This document shows positions 22,282 to 32,550 of a DNA stretch of 64,000 nucleotides, in pieces. The position numbers were made by a program, and so were the translations under genes. This DNA comes from Escherichia phage BP9: the sequence record PP488543.1; one strand, given 5' to 3'. Each line of letters begins with the position of its first letter. Position 1 is the stretch's first letter. A model generated the notes under the pieces. It was not told where the DNA came from. It saw nothing but the letters and a program-made list of their open reading frames with translations, and searched no databases.

Positions 22282-22581
22282 CTATACCCATGAGGGCTTA
22301 TCAAGGTTGGAGTAGCTGAAAGGTGTCAAAAGGTGATTGTCAAAATCTCTCAAACTATCCAGATCTTTTTCCTCGTCCTGACACCATCTGTGCCTACATT
22401 TATTGTTGTAGTGCATAGAATGCATAGCGTTCTGCAACTTAACAGGCACAAGTGATTCGGGAGTAGATAGTATTGTTGGGTATGCCAGAACCACTTCAAA
22501 CAGTGGAAACACATCGAAACTAAAGTCTACCTCTGCAGAGGTTGATGGCATATAGGAGTATTTAGCCGCCTTTGTAGACAT
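22282..22581 (-). CDS. hypothetical protein (99 aa)
   Basis: ATG 22581 after GAGGTGG; directly follows upstream stop. Confidence 0.45.
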   Translation of the reverse strand: MSTKAAKYSYMPSTSAEVDFSFDVFPLFEVVLAYPTILSTPESLVPVKLQNAMHSMHYNNKCRHRWCQDEEKDLDSLRDFDNHLLTPFSYSNLDKPSWV

Positions 22582-22589
22582 AATCCACC

Positions 22590-22916
22590 TCACACAGGTT
22601 TGATAATACCTTCACCGAATAGCTCTTCGTATCTAATCTTATCCGGATCCCACTCCTGGATAATTTCGAAGACAATATCCAACCCAGGAATAATCACTTC
22701 TCCAGTGTCAAGTTTGGCAAGAACAAAACCAGAAGGCTGAATGGTTTCCCAGTTGCGACGATTGGAATAGAAGACCTCGAAAATATCACCGACCTTGATC
22801 TGTTGATCAAGATGTTCAAGATTCTCTTTCATATAGACGCAGCGGATTTTTCGTGCAGGCCATAGACCGCCTGCATCACGTTCATTCAATTCTTTTACAG
22901 TAATCGGTACACCCAT
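22590..22916 (-). CDS. hypothetical protein (108 aa)
   Basis: RBS AAGGAG upstream of ATG. Confidence 0.5.
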   Translation of the reverse strand: MGVPITVKELNERDAGGLWPARKIRCVYMKENLEHLDQQIKVGDIFEVFYSNRRNWETIQPSGFVLAKLDTGEVIIPGLDIVFEIIQEWDPDKIRYEELFGEGIIKPV

Positions 22917-24063: not shown

Positions 24064-24351
24064 TCATAGTGTCTCTAAAATTTCATACCCTTCGGGTCGG
24101 AATACAAGCCACTCCGTGGCCCCGTTTGGTCGATACGCTTTATACAGAACAACCTGATCTCGGCACATGCACATAGCTACATAGTTTTCATCCACACCTG
24201 CAGCCTGCATTGCAGCTTCTTCTCCGGCAACTGCTTTGCTTACAACCTCCTTGGTAGGCAGGTGTGCGATCAGCTCGTCACCATCATTAATTCCAAAATG
24301 GCTGAGTTCTCCATTGGTATCTTTAATCTTAATCTTAACCAGATCTTTCAT
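24064..24351 (-). CDS. small acidic protein (95 aa), MK(I/V)K-family array
   Basis: ORF in tight tandem array; N-terminal MKDLVKIKIKD. Confidence 0.5.
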   Translation of the reverse strand: MKDLVKIKIKDTNGELSHFGINDGDELIAHLPTKEVVSKAVAGEEAAMQAAGVDENYVAMCMCRDQVVLYKAYRPNGATEWLVFRPEGYEILETL

Positions 24352-24680
24352 TAGTCTTCCTCTAGGTTCAAAGGCCCTAAGATTTCATATGCCAGATTAG
24401 AAGTTACCAGAGGGTCTTCTGCATCTTTAGTATTATACCATCCGTGAATAACCAGAGTCCCACTTTGCTTCATGTCTAACTGGAACTGTTCTGCCGTTTC
24501 CTCATCCATCTCCAAGATCTCCATGAGGTATTTGATGTTAGGAAGGTATGCAGCTGTTACAGTCCCCTCTACCAGGCCTTCAGGCCAACCTACATCCGGA
24601 TGACAAGTAGGGACCAGAGAGGTCAGCTTGATAGTGTATGCTTTTTCTGCACGAGCCTTCAGTAACGGATCAATTTTCAT
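24351..24680 (-). CDS. small acidic protein (109 aa), array member
   Basis: Stop/start abutting neighbours. Confidence 0.5.
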   Translation of the reverse strand: MKIDPLLKARAEKAYTIKLTSLVPTCHPDVGWPEGLVEGTVTAAYLPNIKYLMEILEMDEETAEQFQLDMKQSGTLVIHGWYNTKDAEDPLVTSNLAYEILGPLNLEED

Positions 24681-25030
24681 TATTCTTCCTCCTCTTCGGT
24701 GCCTGCTTCCAGTAGTAAGTTAAGAACATCTTCAGCAGAAGGTTCGTAGAACTCTTGGCCTTCATTATCAATGATTCGGTAGTCATCTCCACGAATAATC
24801 AGAGGATCACTCTCAAAATTATCGAGGCCTTTAACAACGACAACACGATCGATTGCCATCATTGTAAGAACTTTATCGACATCTTCCTCTGCTACACCAT
24901 ACTGCAGCAGAATGTCTTTGGTAGGAGGAACAGCATCCACCACAACGCCGTTACCAAAACCTTCTGGAAGTTTAGCTAAAATATCTTCCGGAACCACATT
25001 CACATCAAAACCGGTAATTTCTACTTTCAT
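24680..25030 (-). CDS. small acidic protein (116 aa), array member
   Basis: N-terminal MKVEITG, C-terminal EEEEE. Confidence 0.5.
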   Translation of the reverse strand: MKVEITGFDVNVVPEDILAKLPEGFGNGVVVDAVPPTKDILLQYGVAEEDVDKVLTMMAIDRVVVVKGLDNFESDPLIIRGDDYRIIDNEGQEFYEPSAEDVLNLLLEAGTEEEEE

Positions 25031-25291
25031 TTACAGCACCTCTTCGTCAACTACTTCATAAAAATGGCTTGGGATTGCAATGGCGTTCTCGCCTTCACCT
25101 AAGAACACTGTCCCACTAACGATTAACATTAGAAGAACGTCTGCGATACCTTCCTCGGGGACGTTGCCAAAACCTTTAATCAGCTCGTAGGTTGGAAGAT
25201 TTACCTCTAAGATGTCACCATCTTTAGAACGGAAATCAACACCGTCCTGAATCTCTGCCGTTTCAAGGTTTTTCAATTTAATCTTCATCAA
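25031..25291 (-). CDS. small acidic protein (86 aa), array member
   Basis: N-terminal MMKIKLKNLE, C-terminal FYEVVDEEVL (compare 26456..26725). Confidence 0.5.
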   Translation of the reverse strand: MMKIKLKNLETAEIQDGVDFRSKDGDILEVNLPTYELIKGFGNVPEEGIADVLLMLIVSGTVFLGEGENAIAIPSHFYEVVDEEVL

Positions 25292-25367
25292 TCAGTCTCC
25301 TGTCTTGTTAAGATGAAGGTATTATTGCACACAGGGTTGGTGTTGTCAACACCTGTGTGGTATAAAA

Positions 25368-25763
25368 TTACTGAAACAGTGCAGATAAATTACCTTCTGG
25401 TGGAAACTTATCTGCCAAGAACGGGGTCAGAACAGTAGCCTTCTGAAGATCTGGGGTCCACTCGTTGTTCAGAACATCCCAGTAGTACGCAATGTTGCTG
25501 TGTGGGTGCCGCATTACGAACTTTTTCCCTTCGTAGTCATCTGAAACCTCTACAGAAGAAATAACAACAGAATCTTCAAGGGTTTCTTCATAGAAAGATC
25601 CGCCTTCAAATTTCCAACGAGATGCAAGAGCCCCTGCCTTGAACGCTGCAGATAACGGACTGTCGGCAAGAACATACATTTCTTGCACTCTGTCGCTGCG
25701 ATCTTTGCTTCTTACGTTGTACACAGTATCTGAACTATACTCAACACGGTATAGGCTTACCAT
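25368..25763 (-). CDS. hypothetical protein (131 aa), paralog of 27576..27974
   Basis: Shared motif FV(M/I)(R/V)HP(H/D)S..YW.....(E/T)WTP. Confidence 0.5.
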   Translation of the reverse strand: MVSLYRVEYSSDTVYNVRSKDRSDRVQEMYVLADSPLSAAFKAGALASRWKFEGGSFYEETLEDSVVISSVEVSDDYEGKKFVMRHPHSNIAYYWDVLNNEWTPDLQKATVLTPFLADKFPPEGNLSALFQ

Positions 25764-26095
25764 TACCGCACCTCCTCAATAACTTCCACATCTGAACCAA
25801 CCACAAATGCAAAAGGACAGGTTTCATGAAAGACATCCGGATCGCCGCCAAGCTTGCTAACAATTTCTCCACCGCTGATAAACACAAGCTCACCGATATT
25901 CATCAGATTGCTGAAATAGTATCCATAATGATTAAAGAATGCAGCAGGGTCGGGCAGACTAGTAGCCTCAAGCACTACATCGGTTGAGGTTACTTTCTTA
26001 TCATAACCTCTCGCCTTTTGAGATGCAAGATCTGCAGAATCCTCAGGCGACCGGAGATGCACAGGAATTGTTTCACCAATAAAGCGTACTTTCAT
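25763..26095 (-). CDS. small acidic protein (110 aa), array member
   Basis: ATG 26095 (MKVRFIG...) after upstream stop; track TTG start 26122 overlaps neighbour; C-terminal GSDVEVIEE. Confidence 0.45.
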   Translation of the reverse strand: MKVRFIGETIPVHLRSPEDSADLASQKARGYDKKVTSTDVVLEATSLPDPAAFFNHYGYYFSNLMNIGELVFISGGEIVSKLGGDPDVFHETCPFAFVVGSDVEVIEEVR

Positions 26096-26099
26096 ATTA

Positions 26100-26363
26100 T
26101 CACCCAACAACCATAGCTTCAAAAGGAGTCATGAACGAATAAACGGCATCATCATCTGCTTCAGGGAATGCTCCCAAAGACTTCATGTCTGAGCCCTTAA
26201 CAAATACAAGGTTTTGATCAAAAGCTTCTTGGGGATCAATCCGATACATATCCCGTATGATATCACTTACCTCATCATCGAGAGGCGAGTATGCTGTGCA
26301 CGTTTTTCCAATCAAGCTTTGAGAATCAGGGTATCCACCTGAAGTTTTAAAATAAACAATCAT
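26100..26363 (-). CDS. small acidic protein (87 aa)
   Basis: ORF in array. Confidence 0.5.
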   Translation of the reverse strand: MIVYFKTSGGYPDSQSLIGKTCTAYSPLDDEVSDIIRDMYRIDPQEAFDQNLVFVKGSDMKSLGAFPEADDDAVYSFMTPFEAMVVG

Positions 26364-26455
26364 ATAGTCTCACCTCTGGTAAGAGATGGGGATTCCTTCC
26401 CCACAAATAGTTACAAACCTTTCTTGTCGAGGAAAGTATGCTAACCTAAGCAGGA

Positions 26456-26725
26456 TTACTCTTCTACAACCTCATACACATCAGGAGTTACAATCAACTC
26501 TTCTCCGTTACCCGGTGCAACAAACACCACCAGACCTTCAGGTGTGTGCTTTTTAGCCATCTCGATGACATCTTCTCGCAGAGCTGGCTCCATCAGATCA
26601 AAACCTTCACCCAAGGCATCACGAACCACCTTCATGTAGTCCACTGGTTGTGCTTCAACAATCATGCCTTCAACCAGTCCACAGTTTTTGTCTGCCAGCT
26701 CAGTTTTGAATAATTTAATTTTCAT
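26456..26725 (-). CDS. small acidic protein (89 aa), array member
   Basis: N-terminal MKIKLFKTEL, C-terminal VYEVVEE. Confidence 0.5.
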   Translation of the reverse strand: MKIKLFKTELADKNCGLVEGMIVEAQPVDYMKVVRDALGEGFDLMEPALREDVIEMAKKHTPEGLVVFVAPGNGEELIVTPDVYEVVEE

Positions 26726-26862
26726 TTAGAGGTCTCCTCAATTATTTGATATCAATAGCCGTAACCTAACACATTAACTACAACTGCGATTGCAAACATA
26801 ATTTCAAAGCATGCAATCTCTACATTTGGGACTAATTTCTTAATCACGCCCATTGTAGCACC

Positions 26863-27180
26863 TCATTCTCCAAAGTCAATTTTTACTTTGCCTTTCCCCT
26901 TACCTTTCTTTCCACCACATTTAGCCAGCTGACGTGCTGCAACATCTACCATACGGTCAGTTGCCTCGTAAGCATCACTGCCTTTAGCTTTGGCAATAAC
27001 TTCTTTTCCAGAAGTGTCAAAAATGAACGCCATAACTTCCTGGTGATCATTTTCAACTTTTACACTTACACGTGCATGATTTACAGAAGGATGTAGACGC
27101 TCCAGTTTTGACATTTTGTGGGAAATGAAAGACACCATACCTTCGGTGATTTCTACGTTGCCAGTGATCTCAATTTGCAT
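26863..27180 (-). CDS. hpf: ribosome hibernation promoting factor (HPF/YfiA) homolog
   Basis: MQIEITGNVEITEGM..KLERL..ARVSVKVE....GSDAYEATDRMVDVAARQL resembles E. coli HPF (MQLNITGNNVEITEAL..KLEQY..VYVVLKVE..GQDMYAAIDGLIDKLARQL); RBS GAGGAG. Confidence 0.75.
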   Translation of the reverse strand: MQIEITGNVEITEGMVSFISHKMSKLERLHPSVNHARVSVKVENDHQEVMAFIFDTSGKEVIAKAKGSDAYEATDRMVDVAARQLAKCGGKKGKGKGKVKIDFGE

Positions 27181-27267
27181 AACGTGCTCCTCTCAAGGAA
27201 GGGAGAATAACAACCATCTCTCTTTGAAAACAATAATACTATAGCTGAAGCGTTGTGTCAACAGTTT

Positions 27268-27558
27268 TTACAGCTTGTTGTCGATAGTATCTAAAATATC
27301 TACAGCAAGATCTGCCATTTTTCGAACATACTCTGCAAACTCAACAGGATCCTTGATCAAAGAATTCACAGGGTCGTACCCTAGAGCGTTCAAAATGGCT
27401 GCAGCATCTACAACCTTTTCATCATTTGCAAAGATCTCTCCGTCAAACTTATAGGTCCATTTTGAGTCAATCTTGGCAGGGCATGGTTGGTCCATGCTTG
27501 TTACACCATCGTCTTTAACCTCTCCTGCGTTATCAATATTCAGAACTAAATCCATCAT
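27268..27558 (-). CDS. hypothetical acidic protein (96 aa)
   Basis: ORF in array. Confidence 0.5.
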   Translation of the reverse strand: MMDLVLNIDNAGEVKDDGVTSMDQPCPAKIDSKWTYKFDGEIFANDEKVVDAAAILNALGYDPVNSLIKDPVEFAEYVRKMADLAVDILDTIDNKL

Positions 27559-27575
27559 AGTGGCACCTCACTGTT

Positions 27576-27974
27576 TCAGTTTAGCTTTTCTTCAACAACC
27601 CCATAGCTCGGGGCAGAGTCAAGAGCTTTTTGGTTTAAAAGTGGTGTAGCAGAATCTGCAAACGGTGTCCAAGTTTTTGTTCTGGCATTCCAGTAATGCT
27701 TCACTCTGGAATCAGGATGAACTATAACAAAAACTTTTTCGCTTGTCAACACATTGATTTCTTCTACACCCTTGCTGATAATTTCTCCGTCATAACCCCC
27801 AGTCTGGTATCCTTCGTACCAGGTTCTTGCATAGGCATAGCCAGCCTGCCAGCATGCAGCCTCCTCCGAGGTGGAGACTACGTAGAAGTCTTTCTCAAAT
27901 TCCGGAATACGCCCTTGCTTTACGCTCCAAGCTCCGCGAATTTTCATTGTAACTTTAAACAGTTTATTTTTCAC
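27576..27974 (-). CDS. hypothetical protein (132 aa), paralog of 25368..25763
   Basis: Shared motif FVIVHPDSRVKHYWNARTKTWTP. Confidence 0.5.
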   Translation of the reverse strand: MKNKLFKVTMKIRGAWSVKQGRIPEFEKDFYVVSTSEEAACWQAGYAYARTWYEGYQTGGYDGEIISKGVEEINVLTSEKVFVIVHPDSRVKHYWNARTKTWTPFADSATPLLNQKALDSAPSYGVVEEKLN

Positions 27975-27986
27975 AACGGTTACCCA

Positions 27987-28241
27987 TCACAGCTCTACAA
28001 TATCCACATCTGACCCTACCCCAAAGGCATAATAGGACTCTTCCCCGAAATAATATTCAGGTGCACCAGCGGTGATCAGGTCTGATCCCAAGATAAACAC
28101 CACGTTGTGGCCTACATAACTGTGATGTTGCCGCACAGGATCATCCCACGGCAACCCTTCAAAGTATACCGCAGGAACGACCTTTCCCTTCAGGAAGGAT
28201 TGTCCCAAGTAGACGTTAGAATCAAGAATTTTAACCTTCAT
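27987..28241 (-). CDS. small acidic protein (84 aa), MKVK family
   Basis: MKVKILDSNVYLGQ...DLITAGA...GSDVDIVEL. Confidence 0.5.
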   Translation of the reverse strand: MKVKILDSNVYLGQSFLKGKVVPAVYFEGLPWDDPVRQHHSYVGHNVVFILGSDLITAGAPEYYFGEESYYAFGVGSDVDIVEL

Positions 28242-28458
28242 GATCGTCCTCCACTATCTCTACATCCTCACCTAGGGCAAAGTTGTAGGTCCACTGACTG
28301 TCAAAGCATTCCTGAGATGAACCAGCTGCAATAAGATCTGCCCCTTTTATTTTTAAAAGGTCAGGGTAATCTTCGTTAGGGACAGCAGTAAACACTTTCC
28401 CTACTAAAGGCTCCTGACCAATATAGAAGCTTGAATCTAAAACTTTAACTTTCATCAA
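28231..28458 (-). CDS. small acidic protein (75 aa), MKVK family
   Basis: MMKVKVLDSSFYIGQ...DLIAAGS...GEDVEIVED. Confidence 0.5.
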   Translation of the reverse strand: MMKVKVLDSSFYIGQEPLVGKVFTAVPNEDYPDLLKIKGADLIAAGSSQECFDSQWTYNFALGEDVEIVEDDHEG

Positions 28459-28739
28459 CGGTCTCCATCAGGTGGTTGTGGGACGTAAACACTGTTACGA
28501 ATCTCGTCAGCAGTGTAGTAACAAGTTTTCCCCTCTCTGTCTCTGGCAGCAATGTATTCAGCTATACCAATAAGTGCCATAGCCTTGGTTGCGTATCTCT
28601 TAAGCTCGTTAGCTCCCCAGCAAAATCTCTGCCAAAACGGTATGAAACCGAATAGGTACACTTTCTGTTTCACTATCCAATAAGTTCCTTTACAGATCAC
28701 TTTAAACTCTGCAGCACTATTGCTAACACTATTGCTCAT
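28455..28739 (-). CDS. hypothetical protein (94 aa)
   Basis: ORF with overlapping stop/start. Confidence 0.45.
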   Translation of the reverse strand: MSNSVSNSAAEFKVICKGTYWIVKQKVYLFGFIPFWQRFCWGANELKRYATKAMALIGIAEYIAARDREGKTCYYTADEIRNSVYVPQPPDGDR

Positions 28740-28751
28740 TATCTTCTCCTT

Positions 28752-29036
28752 TTATTTTTCTGGGTTTGGCAGATATTGCACATTAGCAGGAGGAACACCG
28801 GATAGCTCCCAAACAACCATAGTGCTGTACCCTGGCACACTTCTAACATTTAAAAGAGTAGGAGCACCAACACATTTAAACTTCCTTTTCCCAAATCCGT
28901 TCTCCATCATAACCCAGTATCCGGTATCCTGATCACCGGGAATTTGTGTTCCATCATCGTCCACCCAGCGGACGGTCCATTTCGATACAGCAACAGCCTG
29001 GTATTTAAACTTTTTAAACCACTCGAACAGTTTCAT
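28752..29036 (-). CDS. hypothetical protein (94 aa)
   Basis: ORF in array. Confidence 0.5.
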   Translation of the reverse strand: MKLFEWFKKFKYQAVAVSKWTVRWVDDDGTQIPGDQDTGYWVMMENGFGKRKFKCVGAPTLLNVRSVPGYSTMVVWELSGVPPANVQYLPNPEK

Positions 29037-29131
29037 AATTCAGCCTCGCATAGCCATAATAACTATAAACAGACAAATAATGAATCCGAATGCCACGCCA
29101 CCCATAAACGTTAATATTGATGCGATCATAA

Positions 29132-29317
29132 TCAATCAGCCTCGTTTGGCAGCTCTTCCATTTTGACATACCGGAAAGTGTTGCCGTAATAGTTGATCCA
29201 TGACATCAGCTCACTTTCTTGCTCTTCCTCTGGGATGGACTCTCGAACGCTGACAAGTTTTAAGAAAACCCAATCACAATCCACCCCCATCCTACCAGAC
29301 AGACAATAGTGCTTCAT
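29132..29317 (-). CDS. hypothetical protein (61 aa)
   Basis: ORF in array. Confidence 0.4.
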   Translation of the reverse strand: MKHYCLSGRMGVDCDWVFLKLVSVRESIPEEEQESELMSWINYYGNTFRYVKMEELPNEAD

Positions 29318-29335
29318 AAAACCCTCCCGCCTGGT

Positions 29336-29530
29336 TTAGAATATTGCTTCTTCCATTGCACCTGAGAGCAACAAGGAGGTAATCTGGCTAACATTCATCT
29401 CAGACTCCACTTCCTCTCCTTTGAAAGGTTCGCGGCAGAATAGGACTGTTTCAGGATTTTTACTTCGAACAATATAATACAAATCATTCAAAGTGTTGTA
29501 GTAATAAGTGTTAAAACGTAAGTTTTTCAT
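29336..29530 (-). CDS. hypothetical protein (64 aa)
   Basis: ORF in array. Confidence 0.4.
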   Translation of the reverse strand: MKNLRFNTYYYNTLNDLYYIVRSKNPETVLFCREPFKGEEVESEMNVSQITSLLLSGAMEEAIF

Positions 29531-29814
29531 TTTCTAGTCCCCTTTTTAGATTTTTGTGCAGAAACGCTTTCTGCAATACGAGACAGGCGTTCTTCTGAAG
29601 CTTTACCTACCCCAGGTTTCTTGAGCGGGTTATCTTTATGACCGCAATCCAATTGGATGCTAGATACATCCCCAACCTTGTAAGTCAATTCTAGCAAAAG
29701 GTTGTCGTCCTTGTCAAATGTTTTTACGATAAATTTTTTATCGTCCTCCTTAACTTCATATCTAGTACCTGCAGTATACAGCATGGTGCCATCAGCGTAG
29801 GATATCCAGATCAT
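29527..29814 (-). CDS. hypothetical protein (95 aa)
   Basis: Overlapping stop/start with neighbours. Confidence 0.5.
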   Translation of the reverse strand: MIWISYADGTMLYTAGTRYEVKEDDKKFIVKTFDKDDNLLLELTYKVGDVSSIQLDCGHKDNPLKKPGVGKASEERLSRIAESVSAQKSKKGTRK

Positions 29815-30158
29815 TGCACCTCCTTCTGCTGCAACAGCATCAACTCTTTGTTGGAAATCTTTACTGCTGTCTTTATTGTCCCATCTTCACGGAACCACGA
29901 CCAGAATTCTACAGTGTCACCACTATCAAGCAAGGCATGACCATGGTAAAAATCTTTGTCCTTAGACAGTTTCTCATCTATATCTGCATCAACACATTCG
30001 TGATCCATAGCATTTTGCCTGAACGCATCGGTTATGCCAATGCACGCCTTGCTCTCAAGGCTGGTATACCCAATATCTTTTAATTCAGTTTCCCAAGTCC
30101 AGTACCCTATAAAAGCCACAACAGCTACCCACATCAATATCGATTTAATCTTTGACAT
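29811..30158 (-). CDS. membrane-anchored protein (115 aa)
   Basis: N-terminal hydrophobic helix ILMWVAVVAFIGYW. Confidence 0.5.
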   Translation of the reverse strand: MSKIKSILMWVAVVAFIGYWTWETELKDIGYTSLESKACIGITDAFRQNAMDHECVDADIDEKLSKDKDFYHGHALLDSGDTVEFWSWFREDGTIKTAVKISNKELMLLQQKEVQ

Positions 30159-30218
30159 TCTCTCTACCTCTTTCTTAATTTGTTTAATTATGGCACATCC
30201 TTTGTGCCTTGTTACACA

Positions 30219-30680
30219 CTACTTAAACAACAGTTCAAAATAGTGCAAAATTAACAGAAGTTGAATTACGCCCAGCACAACGGCAAGTATGTTAATCTTA
30301 GAATCAAAAAACTTCTTAACTTTTACCCTAAAAGGTTCCTTAATGTCCTTTACGATCCTATCTATAGATGATCTCATATCTCTGATTACCATCCTGAACA
30401 TTAAAGACGGATGATCCCTCTCTGTAACGGAATCGAAAACATACTCTCTTTGATCATAAGGGCCGCCAGCTCTGCGTATTAACCTCTCCACAGAGACCTC
30501 GAACGTCACACCTGTAACGTAATCATCTATGACAAGTAGTGACGGGTCTTTACCATCAAGAGGCATCAAAGTTATCTTTCCAGATTTTGTTAAAATCTCT
30601 CCTTTTTCAAGTAAGGTGTACCAATGCTCTCTGCCAAGACTGTTGAGGCACGTTTTTACATATTTAACAAACATCGTCAC
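30219..30680 (-). CDS. hypothetical protein with C-terminal TM helix (153 aa)
   Basis: C-terminal ILAVVLGVIQLLLILHYF. Confidence 0.5.
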   Translation of the reverse strand: MTMFVKYVKTCLNSLGREHWYTLLEKGEILTKSGKITLMPLDGKDPSLLVIDDYVTGVTFEVSVERLIRRAGGPYDQREYVFDSVTERDHPSLMFRMVIRDMRSSIDRIVKDIKEPFRVKVKKFFDSKINILAVVLGVIQLLLILHYFELLFK

Positions 30681-30862
30681 CCCTCATCACACGTCTGATA
30701 TAACCACTCTATAAAATCTTGATACCATTCGCCCTCTGAGCGCTCCGTAGGCCAATAATCTTCACCCTCTCGTGCATTAAAATCTGAGTATTCAACTTTC
30801 CACTCCTTTACCAGCTCGTGGAGAAGGTTTTCAGCCTGCTCTAAAGATTTATTTTTTGCCAT
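30677..30862 (-). CDS. hypothetical protein (61 aa)
   Basis: ATG 30862 after AAGGAGAC; track start 30880 is TTG. Confidence 0.45.
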   Translation of the reverse strand: MAKNKSLEQAENLLHELVKEWKVEYSDFNAREGEDYWPTERSEGEWYQDFIEWLYQTCDEG

Positions 30863-31081
30863 TGCTGTCTCCTTTTTCAAGATATTTATACATCAGAACT
30901 GCACCACCTAAGATGGCTACCAGTAACAATACCCCAGATAGCATCTCAATAAACATGGCTTGAAACACTGGAAGGTCTCCCTAAATTAACGCACCACTTT
31001 AAATACATGCTCTTTTCCCATAAAGGTGCCTGGCTAAGATCTGCGTAGAACGCAATCTCTTTAAGAACAGTATAAACAGTT

Positions 31082-31318
31082 TTAGGTGCGGTCTCCATCC
31101 CTACTCCCCTTTTTCTCCTTACGGATATTCTTGTAGTAATCAACTAGGCACATTATTACGATGAAGATAACAATAGGCCAAAAAGGTGCAGCAGTGATGA
31201 TGGTGATAAAATCATCAAACTTCACCCTTCGTCTAGACACGATGCATACACCTGTCAAGAATACCGCTGTTATAACGGCTATTACCAGGTAACCTATTAG
31301 CACAACATTTATACTCAT
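31082..31318 (-). CDS. membrane protein (78 aa)
   Basis: RBS AAAGGGAGGG; two hydrophobic helices. Confidence 0.5.
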   Translation of the reverse strand: MSINVVLIGYLVIAVITAVFLTGVCIVSRRRVKFDDFITIITAAPFWPIVIFIVIMCLVDYYKNIRKEKKGSRDGDRT

Positions 31319-31348
31319 TAGCCCTCCCTTTGTAGGTTAAATTATATA

Positions 31349-31882
31349 CTACAGATGGTTGCTGATGGTGTCAAGAAAATTATCTCGTTCTTTCTCGGAG
31401 TTTTCACGGGTGTAGTTGAAAAACATATCTAGAATAACCTTATTGATATATTCCAGCTCCTCTGTGTTCAGGTACTTAGCAGGATCTACAATGACATCCC
31501 AAGTCTCATACAGACCGCACTCATGATACCCCCAACGCTGCTCAATTGTCAAGCTGAGTGGCAAATCTTTACCGTCACAAACAACCTTCCATCTACAAAT
31601 GCTGGTATCTGGTCGTATCTGTGCACGGTATACCTGTACAAAATCCAATTTGAATTTGAGGTACTCGTCATACAATTTAAGCACAAAGCTCTCGATTTGT
31701 GGAGACACTTTTGCAGCAAACTGTGCGTATTTATACTTGCACTGGATGATCTTTCTGCGTTTTGCAGTTAAATTTTTTGCAGCCAGTTGTTCTTCAGTGT
31801 ATCTCCATCTACGATCAACAAACGCAACAGGATCTTTGTCCCCATAGAGGTATTCCCAGTTAATCAGAAGCATACCTGTCAC
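31349..31882 (-). CDS. hypothetical protein (177 aa)
   Basis: ORF; no motif recognised. Confidence 0.5.
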   Translation of the reverse strand: MTGMLLINWEYLYGDKDPVAFVDRRWRYTEEQLAAKNLTAKRRKIIQCKYKYAQFAAKVSPQIESFVLKLYDEYLKFKLDFVQVYRAQIRPDTSICRWKVVCDGKDLPLSLTIEQRWGYHECGLYETWDVIVDPAKYLNTEELEYINKVILDMFFNYTRENSEKERDNFLDTISNHL

Positions 31883-32112
31883 TCCTCCACAACTTCAAGG
31901 CCTTTGCCGCCTCGTTCTGGTAGATTACTTAAAGACAGGTAATACGTATAGTCAGGAGAGATCCTGCCAGACTCTGCACCTGCAGCTAATAAATCTTTTC
32001 CCTTAACCATGACAACATTATCGTTTGCAGATAGCCGTTTTGCTTCCACAATTTTACCGATGCAGTCAACCAAGGAAGGGTATCCTAAATCTGTAAGAAA
32101 TTTAACTTTCAT
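31879..32112 (-). CDS. small acidic protein (77 aa), MKVK family
   Basis: MKVKFLTDLGYP...DLLAAGA...GLEVVEE. Confidence 0.5.
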   Translation of the reverse strand: MKVKFLTDLGYPSLVDCIGKIVEAKRLSANDNVVMVKGKDLLAAGAESGRISPDYTYYLSLSNLPERGGKGLEVVEE

Positions 32113-32151
32113 GCTACCTCCTACTTCTACCGTCCCTGGTAAGATAAATTA

Positions 32152-32550
32152 TTACTGAACAGAGCGCGGAGCTGGGAAGGATAACTCTTCTAAAGAGAAG
32201 ATTTCATTTCCCACAATCCATGTTGCCGGATCATCTTGGTTGACTGGATAGATAATCATCACCTCGTCCGTGTTACATACCCGCTTTTTACCTGTGGAGT
32301 TATCAGCAACCAGCATACGCGGTTCTTCAGAAATGCACAGGTAGCCTCCTCGGCCCACTGTTCCTTCCACAGGGTCTTGTCCTTTGATCACGATGATTAT
32401 CTTTTCACCTGCGGCAATATTACCTTGCACACTTACCGTTTGACCAACCTTAGAAGTACCAGTCTGGGTTACTTCAAACATTACATCCCGAATTACTGTT
32501 GCATAATCGCCAGAAACTTTCTTACCTTCTTTAGTGATCTCAATCTTCAT
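32152..32550 (-). CDS. hypothetical protein (132 aa)
   Basis: N-terminal MKIEITKEG. Confidence 0.5.
   Translation of the reverse strand: MKIEITKEGKKVSGDYATVIRDVMFEVTQTGTSKVGQTVSVQGNIAAGEKIIIVIKGQDPVEGTVGRGGYLCISEEPRMLVADNSTGKKRVCNTDEVMIIYPVNQDDPATWIVGNEIFSLEELSFPAPRSVQ

Follow-up and report, generated by a model that had tools for sequence, protein, structure and literature searches.

Twelve small genes on the minus strand of Escherichia phage BP9 (sequence record PP488543.1) make up three old families of paralogs, which we call A (five genes), B (five genes) and C (two genes). The genes lie between positions 24,064 and 32,550 of the 64,000-nucleotide stretch that we analysed, referred to below as the window, and each is named by its lower coordinate. 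Orthologs of three consecutive genes, 25368, 25763 and 26100, are dispensable in phage Bas54 on K-12 and are required on the uropathogenic strain CFE311. We consider the chance slightly better than even (about 0.55) that the genes of families A, B and C are accessory and encode host-specific binders that neutralise a host factor, probably an immunity protein. The members are listed here with their orthologs in Bas54 and, for three of them, in phage rV5.

24064..24351, minus strand: family B, 95 amino acids; bas54_0146; leave-one-out E 3.6e-6
24351..24680, minus strand: probable family B, 109 amino acids; bas54_0147; shuffle z 4.3 to 24680 and 2.9 to 24064
24680..25030, minus strand: family B, 116 amino acids; bas54_0148; shuffle z 4.3-5.3 to 24064, 24351 and 25031
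25031..25288, minus strand: family B, 85 amino acids; bas54_0149; shuffle z 3.6-4.6 to 24064, 24680 and 26456
25368..25763, minus strand: family C, 131 amino acids; bas54_0150; phrog_7379
25763..26095, minus strand: family A, 110 amino acids; bas54_0151; phmmer E 2e-4 to 27987; profile E 5e-5
26100..26363, minus strand: family A, 87 amino acids; bas54_0152; profile E 2.5e-6; phrog_5009 E 9e-5
26456..26725, minus strand: family B, 89 amino acids; bas54_0153; leave-one-out E 9.5e-4
27576..27974, minus strand: family C, 132 amino acids (123 with the Bas54 start); bas54_0157; phrog_7379
27987..28241, minus strand: family A, 84 amino acids; 11-nt overlap with 28231; bas54_0158 / rv5_gp136
28231..28455, minus strand: family A, 74 amino acids (75 if the start is 28458); net charge -10; bas54_0159 / rv5_gp135
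31879..32112, minus strand: family A, 77 amino acids; bas54_0166 / rv5_gp122; phrog_5009 E 6e-36

Phenotypes for the orthologs of these genes are found in the HIDEN-SEQ preprint, which reports saturating transposon mutagenesis of phage Bas54 (tables in supplement file 9; 10.1101/2025.11.20.689424). Judged from the locus tags, Bas54 is phage MaxBurger (MZ501093). The proteins encoded by bas54_0146-0159 and 0166 are 88-100% identical to those of the window, the identity being 130/131 residues for 25368, 109/110 for 25763, 84/87 for 26100 and 123/123 for 27576. On K-12, all of bas54_0146-0168 were scored Non-essential or Intermediate; among the array orthologs only bas54_0151-0153 were Intermediate, the others being Non-essential (10.1101/2025.11.20.689424). 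When CFE311 was compared with K-12, reads dropped to 0 in bas54_0150, 0151 and 0152, the orthologs of 25368, 25763 and 26100 (log2 fold changes of -6.77, -6.17 and -7.16, respectively; q = 0), and bas54_0157, the ortholog of 27576, was depleted 4-fold (log2 fold change -2.14, q = 0). The orthologs bas54_0146-0149, 0158, 0159 and 0166 were neutral, and the change in bas54_0153 was not significant (10.1101/2025.11.20.689424). The text of the preprint does not mention the array genes; only bas54_0063 and bas54_0140 were validated there, against the predicted defence system DS-28. Part of what is expected of anti-defence genes, dispensability on K-12 and a requirement on another host, is seen for the orthologs of 25368, 25763 and 26100 and to a lesser degree for that of 27576. 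A preliminary description of the window had proposed host-takeover or anti-defence functions for the array. This proposal gains from the strict requirement for three genes and the partial requirement for a fourth on CFE311; it finds nothing of the kind in family B or in 27987, 28231 and 31879, which showed no such phenotype.

The block is a genus-specific accessory region of an rV5-like virulent phage, its genes falling into three old paralog families. In the mechanism that we favour, each protein of family A or B is a single SH3-like barrel domain that stands on its own and is in most cases very acidic, family C contributes proteins of about 130 amino acids, and all would act as stoichiometric binders. 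Binding rather than catalysis is suggested because the proteins are small and lack conserved residues of catalytic type, and because the glycines and hydrophobic positions that are conserved have structural roles. Each paralog would have its own target, a protein of the host or of host immunity, and would matter only where that target is present. The requirement on CFE311 would then reflect the neutralisation of a strain-specific defence, not some other difference between the hosts, and the members without a phenotype would do likewise against targets absent from both hosts tested. A host-specific or anti-defence role is proposed because all the genes are dispensable on K-12, four of them are depleted on CFE311 and the array lies close to the ortholog of bas54_0140.

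Family A consists of 25763, 26100, 27987, 28231 and 31879 and has firm statistical support. Comparison of the window proteins with each other by phmmer linked 27987 to 28231 (E 1e-11), 28231 to 31879 (E 2.5e-5) and 25763 to 27987 (E 2e-4). A hidden Markov model (HMM) built from 27987, 28231 and 31879 recovered 26100-26363 and 25763 as its sole additional matches among the 483 six-frame open reading frames of the window, and the search converged on these five genes. In an alignment of 23 family A sequences, M1, G19, G38 and G45 are invariant and V3, Y11, K20 and Y57 nearly so. All five proteins match the profile over its full length, from an MKVK first strand and a G-K-V-x-x-A second strand through a G-x-(D/E)-L-x-x-x-G segment to a C-terminal (E/D)-(V/I)-(V/I)-E strand. 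The smallest member, 28231, is the minimal form of the fold; 26100 has an additional segment between strands 2 and 3, and 25763 carries long N-terminal and internal insertions. Only 31879 stands apart, 3.6 kb upstream of the other array genes. A 108-amino-acid gene at 22590-22916 (minus strand) showed no match to the family A profile in the window copy, and its ortholog in a divergent metagenomic relative (L017, 11770-12108) was marginal (E 0.01); it may encode another, very distant barrel protein.

Family B (24064, 24351, 24680, 25031 and 26456) is weak but, by sequence statistics, significant. Pairwise Smith-Waterman scores were compared with those of 200 shuffles per pair, with family B proteins against other small window proteins as controls. 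Seven of the 10 pairs within the family had a shuffle z of 2.9 to 5.3, the 99th percentile of the controls being 2.8, and the two distributions differed clearly (Mann-Whitney p = 1.6e-6). When HMMs were built with one orthologous group left out at a time, the omitted member was always the top non-training match in the window, with E values of 1.4e-7 (24680), 3.6e-6 (24064), 3.4e-5 (25031), 9.5e-4 (26456) and 0.14 (24351). Gene 24351 is accordingly the weakest case and is counted as a probable member. Gene 24680 encodes an additional acidic C-terminal tail, and its product has a net charge of -21. Two annotations of family B genes deserve comment. Several phage entries in GenBank (e.g. naswa_172; L013 6892-7161) label orthologs of 26456 'sigma 54 modulation factor', which looks like a propagated error, as Pfam and the predicted fold give it no backing. 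In the rV5 reference record, the ortholog of 24064 is split by a frameshift into the overlapping gp148 and gp149 (L001 1520-1790); it is intact in 7 other genomes, and the split reflects a sequencing error or else a pseudogene in rV5.

All eight open reading frames named in the preliminary description were found where it had placed them, on the minus strand. Its single family of at least six genes, joined by a shared start, end and central motif, was right for 25763, 27987, 28231 and 31879 but not for 25031 and 26456. These two lack the central DL(I/L)xAG(A/S) motif, score against family A with a shuffle z of -0.9 to 2.0, match family A profiles not at all or at E ~0.4, and belong to family B; the member that had been missed was 26100. 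One family of six or more was rejected, since sequence separates A from B, leaving two families and a pair. Also rejected as members were 32152 (MKIEIT...) and a homolog of the ribosome hibernation factor HPF/RaiA (MQIEIT...), neither of which gave a profile match. The proposed second pair, 25368 and 27576, held up well (phmmer E 1e-9, both in phrog_7379). So did its picture of small paralogs in a virulent phage that no motif identifies. Searches of Pfam, NCBIfam, PADLOC and the sequences in the PDB with the proteins of all three families gave nothing usable, with zero matches in PADLOC and sub-threshold chance matches alone in NCBIfam. For families A and B, no Pfam family was found at E <=0.1, the SH3 and KOW models included, and no PDB sequence at E <0.1. 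By sequence, the A, B and C proteins match no characterised family.

AlphaFold2 models were built on alignments of paralogs and orthologs. Both A and B were predicted with high confidence (predicted local distance difference test scores of 92-93) as SH3-like small beta-barrels of five antiparallel strands, which superpose on SH3, KOW and PsaE domains; in family B, three helices are inserted. The MK(V/I)K start and (Y/V)E(V/I)VE end common to both groups form the first and last strands of the predicted barrel. A search of BFVD with the family A model returned nothing but small proteins of other phages that are likewise uncharacterised. All of the ten A and B proteins except 31879 (-1) have net charges of -6 to -21. 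In direct comparison, Smith-Waterman scores between A and B did not differ from those of the controls (p = 0.30), and hhalign gave a probability of 1.7% with small profiles. After sequences from the divergent relative and from distant homologs had been added, the probability rose to 13.8% (E 0.002), with an alignment in register across the whole barrel. On balance, common descent of the two families is plausible and somewhat more likely than not.

For family C, the only PDB sequences matched by 25368 were three Rad6-type E2 ubiquitin-conjugating enzymes (phmmer E 0.4-0.8). The segments FEGG, KFV..HP.. and YWDVLNNEWTP align to the E2 core, with a Tyr in 25368 at the position of the E2 catalytic Cys. 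In single-sequence hhalign comparison with E2, 25368 was the best of 101 small window proteins (probability 28%). Profiles of two to three sequences gave 0.7-3.5%, and a two-sequence profile lost the PDB matches. The Pfam UQ_con model found nothing in family C even at E 10, and the divergent ortholog (L017) has lost WTP. The resemblance to the E2 core is a weak lead that is not robust to profile building, and we do not file family C as a member. A bolder reading would take A and B as one ancient acidic SH3-like 'decoy' superfamily and C as a catalytically dead E2/UEV-like protein; 25368, 25763 and 26100 would together neutralise a CFE311 immunity system, conceivably one of ubiquitin-like conjugation, and the other paralogs would constitute a library of inhibitors pre-adapted to defences yet to be screened. 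We regard this as a long shot.

The array was also examined in related genomes. Of the 120 matching Vequintavirus phage records, 116 contain the block 24064-28458 over its full length, with 90-96% identity, and individual orthologs are 90-99% conserved in more than 110 genomes. Pooled pairwise ratios of nonsynonymous to synonymous substitution rates (dN/dS) among eight genomes were 0.03-0.18 in each of the twelve genes, which indicates strong purifying selection. L017, the divergent metagenomic relative, has exactly five A and five B genes and one C gene, 27576 having been lost; this gene is possibly lost in phage EduardKellenberger as well, where its best match is only 27.7% identical. From the low dN/dS and the retention of the block, the array appears old and stable, with individually maintained genes and an old divergence of the paralogs. 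Ongoing diversifying selection was thus rejected, and with it the view of a 'diversified' array. Variation in copy number among related phages, which the preliminary description had proposed to look for, was likewise rejected as the rule, its exceptions being rare. One such exception is P0006, a protein of 70 amino acids from two metagenomic contigs (the longest 133 kb), which is an exact hybrid of the N-terminal half of 28231 and the C-terminal half of 27987. The junction coincides with the conserved DLIxAGA motif, which indicates a deletion by recombination between adjacent paralogs.

Family A is uncommon overall: 1.84 billion representative proteins, searched exhaustively with an HMM, yielded 29 clusters at E <=1e-3, nearly all of them proteins of 63-87 amino acids with the same consensus. 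Two metagenomic proteins (L016, L018), P0057 of 264 amino acids and P0060 of 219 amino acids, have three and two tandem family A domains, respectively, and then a C-terminal region unrelated to them; their contigs, like those of distant family A relatives, are too short for an informative gene context. The block is absent from the syntenic site in the sister genera PVP-SE1 and KB57. Additional members were found neither in the rest of the window nor in rV5 at 1-50 kb and 100-138 kb, and PVP-SE1, KB57 and prophage loci contained none save one family A homolog in a prophage. Eighteen UNVERIFIED 'Campylobacter phage' records (MG0656xx, e.g. L014) are Vequintavirus genomes 93-96% identical to the array region, and their host label is doubtful.

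The window derives from an rV5-like phage (Vequintavirus), and the region is 93-94% identical in nucleotide sequence to Escherichia phage rV5, as it is to over 110 further genomes of Vequintavirus. Its counterpart in rV5 is rv5_gp121-gp149, annotated as hypothetical throughout save one RaiA/HPF homolog. In rV5, the unit that holds the array genes comprises genes 82-163 (PMC3606486). Four further features of the neighbourhood bear on the arguments below.

22282-22581, minus strand: ortholog of bas54_0140 (97/99 amino acids), six genes downstream of family B and ~1.5 kb off
25321..25349, minus strand: putative sigma-70-like promoter, TTGACA, 17-nt spacer, AATAAT, with TG; consensus match
26863-27180, minus strand: HPF/RaiA ribosome hibernation factor homolog; Pfam PF02482, 50 bits
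27233..27261, minus strand: putative sigma-70-like promoter, TTGACA, 17-nt spacer, TATTAT; consensus match

The two near-consensus promoters occupy the only sizeable intergenic gaps of the region. The one at 25349-25321 lies upstream of the family B tetrad, of which 25031 is the first gene, and corresponds to the annotated rV5 promoter P150. The other, at 27261-27233, corresponds to rV5 P144 and precedes the HPF homolog and 26456, 26100, 25763 and 25368. The HPF/RaiA homolog stands in mid-array, and the sigma-70-like promoter directly before it is a strong one; in Bas54, its ortholog had no phenotype on K-12 or CFE311 (10.1101/2025.11.20.689424). Genes 26100, 25763 and 25368 are tightly packed, with a spacing of 4 nt followed by an overlapping ATGA stop/start in which the stop codon of 25763 overlaps the start of 25368. 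The family C genes 25368 and 27576 are 1.8 kb apart. The ortholog of bas54_0140, just outside the array coordinates, is unrelated by sequence to A, B and C. MaxBurger lacks orthologs of six genes from 28752 to 30219 (~2 kb; region about 28752-30680; L015 5947-6501). These are unrelated neighbours of the array genes, and the rV5 annotation lists one of them as a virion structural protein. This sub-block is dispensable and variable, since it is missing from MaxBurger, and in half of the compared genomes the alleles of 28752 itself vary in length or are divergent.

Several observations weigh against the interpretation of the array proteins as host-specific neutralising binders. No target or defence system is matched to any of the twelve genes, and a phenotype on K-12 or CFE311 is absent for seven genes out of the ten in families A and B. 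The data come from one clinical strain: the sheets for CFE303 and CFE311 (Data S6 and S7) are numerically identical as stored, and the command line in the 'CFE303' sheet names the '311' sample. Genes may be conditionally essential on a given clinical strain through differences in physiology or receptors instead of immunity, and strong purifying selection with a near-invariant gene content is unusual for arms-race loci. Such selection and gene content would suit conserved targets, as expected if the proteins were modulators of host takeover or physiology, the acidic barrels binding the ribosome, RNA polymerase or nucleoid proteins and, together with HPF/RaiA, tuning host translation or transcription; the strain requirement would then be a difference in physiology. 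The HPF homolog inside the array fits this alternative, as does the Intermediate, not fully neutral, score of bas54_0151-0153 on K-12. We nevertheless find it unlikely. The genes are dispensable on K-12, neither host revealed a phenotype for HPF, and the block is missing from sister genera with similar hosts. In addition, a discrete barrier would more typically produce such an all-or-none requirement on one clinical isolate, and no relation of A or B to KOW or ribosomal proteins was found at the sequence level.

The direct evidence is strongest for family C, because 26100, 25763 and 25368 may be translationally coupled and because two unlinked C paralogs are both depleted. It also counts against a general neutralising role that loss of translational coupling could make insertions in 26100 and 25763 act via 25368 alone. 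Carried to its end, this argument makes family C alone host-specific, with A and B unrelated or redundant and the depletion of 25763 and 26100 an artefact of polarity or coupling. The depletion of both C paralogs despite their separation, the 4-nt spacing and ATGA overlap in the trio, and the neutrality of the three other A genes and of all B genes would follow from it. On the other side, bas54_0154 and 0155, further upstream in the same promoter unit, were neutral on CFE311 and bas54_0153 was not significant; the transposon contains no terminator, and the authors argue against general polarity and report that an insertion upstream of an essential gene was in most cases tolerated (10.1101/2025.11.20.689424). 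Moreover, 25763 and 26100 are themselves under strong purifying selection (dN/dS 0.07-0.08). We therefore think a role confined to family C improbable, about as much so as the modulators. Finally, the families could be compositional only, in that proteins without kinship begin Lys-rich and end acidic. The non-significant A versus B signal, and the occurrence of similar starts in the unrelated 32152 and HPF proteins, would agree with this. The signal within A and within B is well over shuffles and controls, conserved Gly, Tyr and Ala columns lie in the core and not at the termini alone, and both families are confidently predicted as the same barrel. The alignment check suggested in the preliminary description, in which conserved columns were to tell kinship from bias, thus came out in favour of kinship for family A. 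As judged from the alignments, compositional bias is refuted for A and B separately, the A-B link alone excepted, and as an account of the whole it is very improbable. Neutralising binders with distinct host targets, probably immunity proteins, are the interpretation that we retain.

Phages of the rV5 type are common, have broad host ranges and are candidates for phage therapy, and most of their ~230 genes lack an assigned function. The present analysis converts twelve hypothetical proteins into three defined families, two with a confidently predicted fold, and ties them to an existing dataset in which a uropathogenic strain from the clinic strictly requires some of these genes. It supplies a short list of genes and a host strain with which to find a new phage counter-defence and possibly the defence that it targets. 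The paralogs would also offer a natural series for the re-targeting of a minimal SH3-like scaffold.

The barrels of families A and B resemble the SH3-like small beta-barrels of eukaryotic SH3, NusG/Spt5 KOW, PsaE and the C-terminal domain of retroviral integrases, but this likeness in fold is generic. In PHROG, the proteins are matched end to end by profiles at E 1e-32 to 1e-75. Family A is divided there into three groups (phrog_5009, 13661 and 13920) and family B into five (12794, 12457, 12155, 12359 and 11868), all functionally unassigned, as is phrog_7379. The database already unites 27987, 28231 and 31879 (and, weakly, 26100) in phrog_5009 and the C pair in phrog_7379, with no statement on function, fold or paralogy. 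New here are the A and B groupings, the predicted fold and the link to conditional essentiality.

The sole homolog of family A in a bacterial genome (P0031) is 49% identical to 31879, its closest relative, and is located between the antiterminator Q and holin genes of lambdoid E. coli prophages, among other small open reading frames. This interval is a classic moron slot of lambdoid prophages; the homolog there is single-copy in a temperate phage, whereas the genes described here form an array in a virulent one. Small anti-defence genes discovered by phage Tn-seq and then validated, such as the anti-DS-28 gene bas54_0140, also bear comparison. The cognate defence of bas54_0140 was found by cloning, and this gene is like the array genes in neighbourhood, strand, small size and an unassigned fold family, and in the same experiment it was, as were the orthologs of 25368, 25763 and 26100, dispensable on K-12 and required on CFE311.

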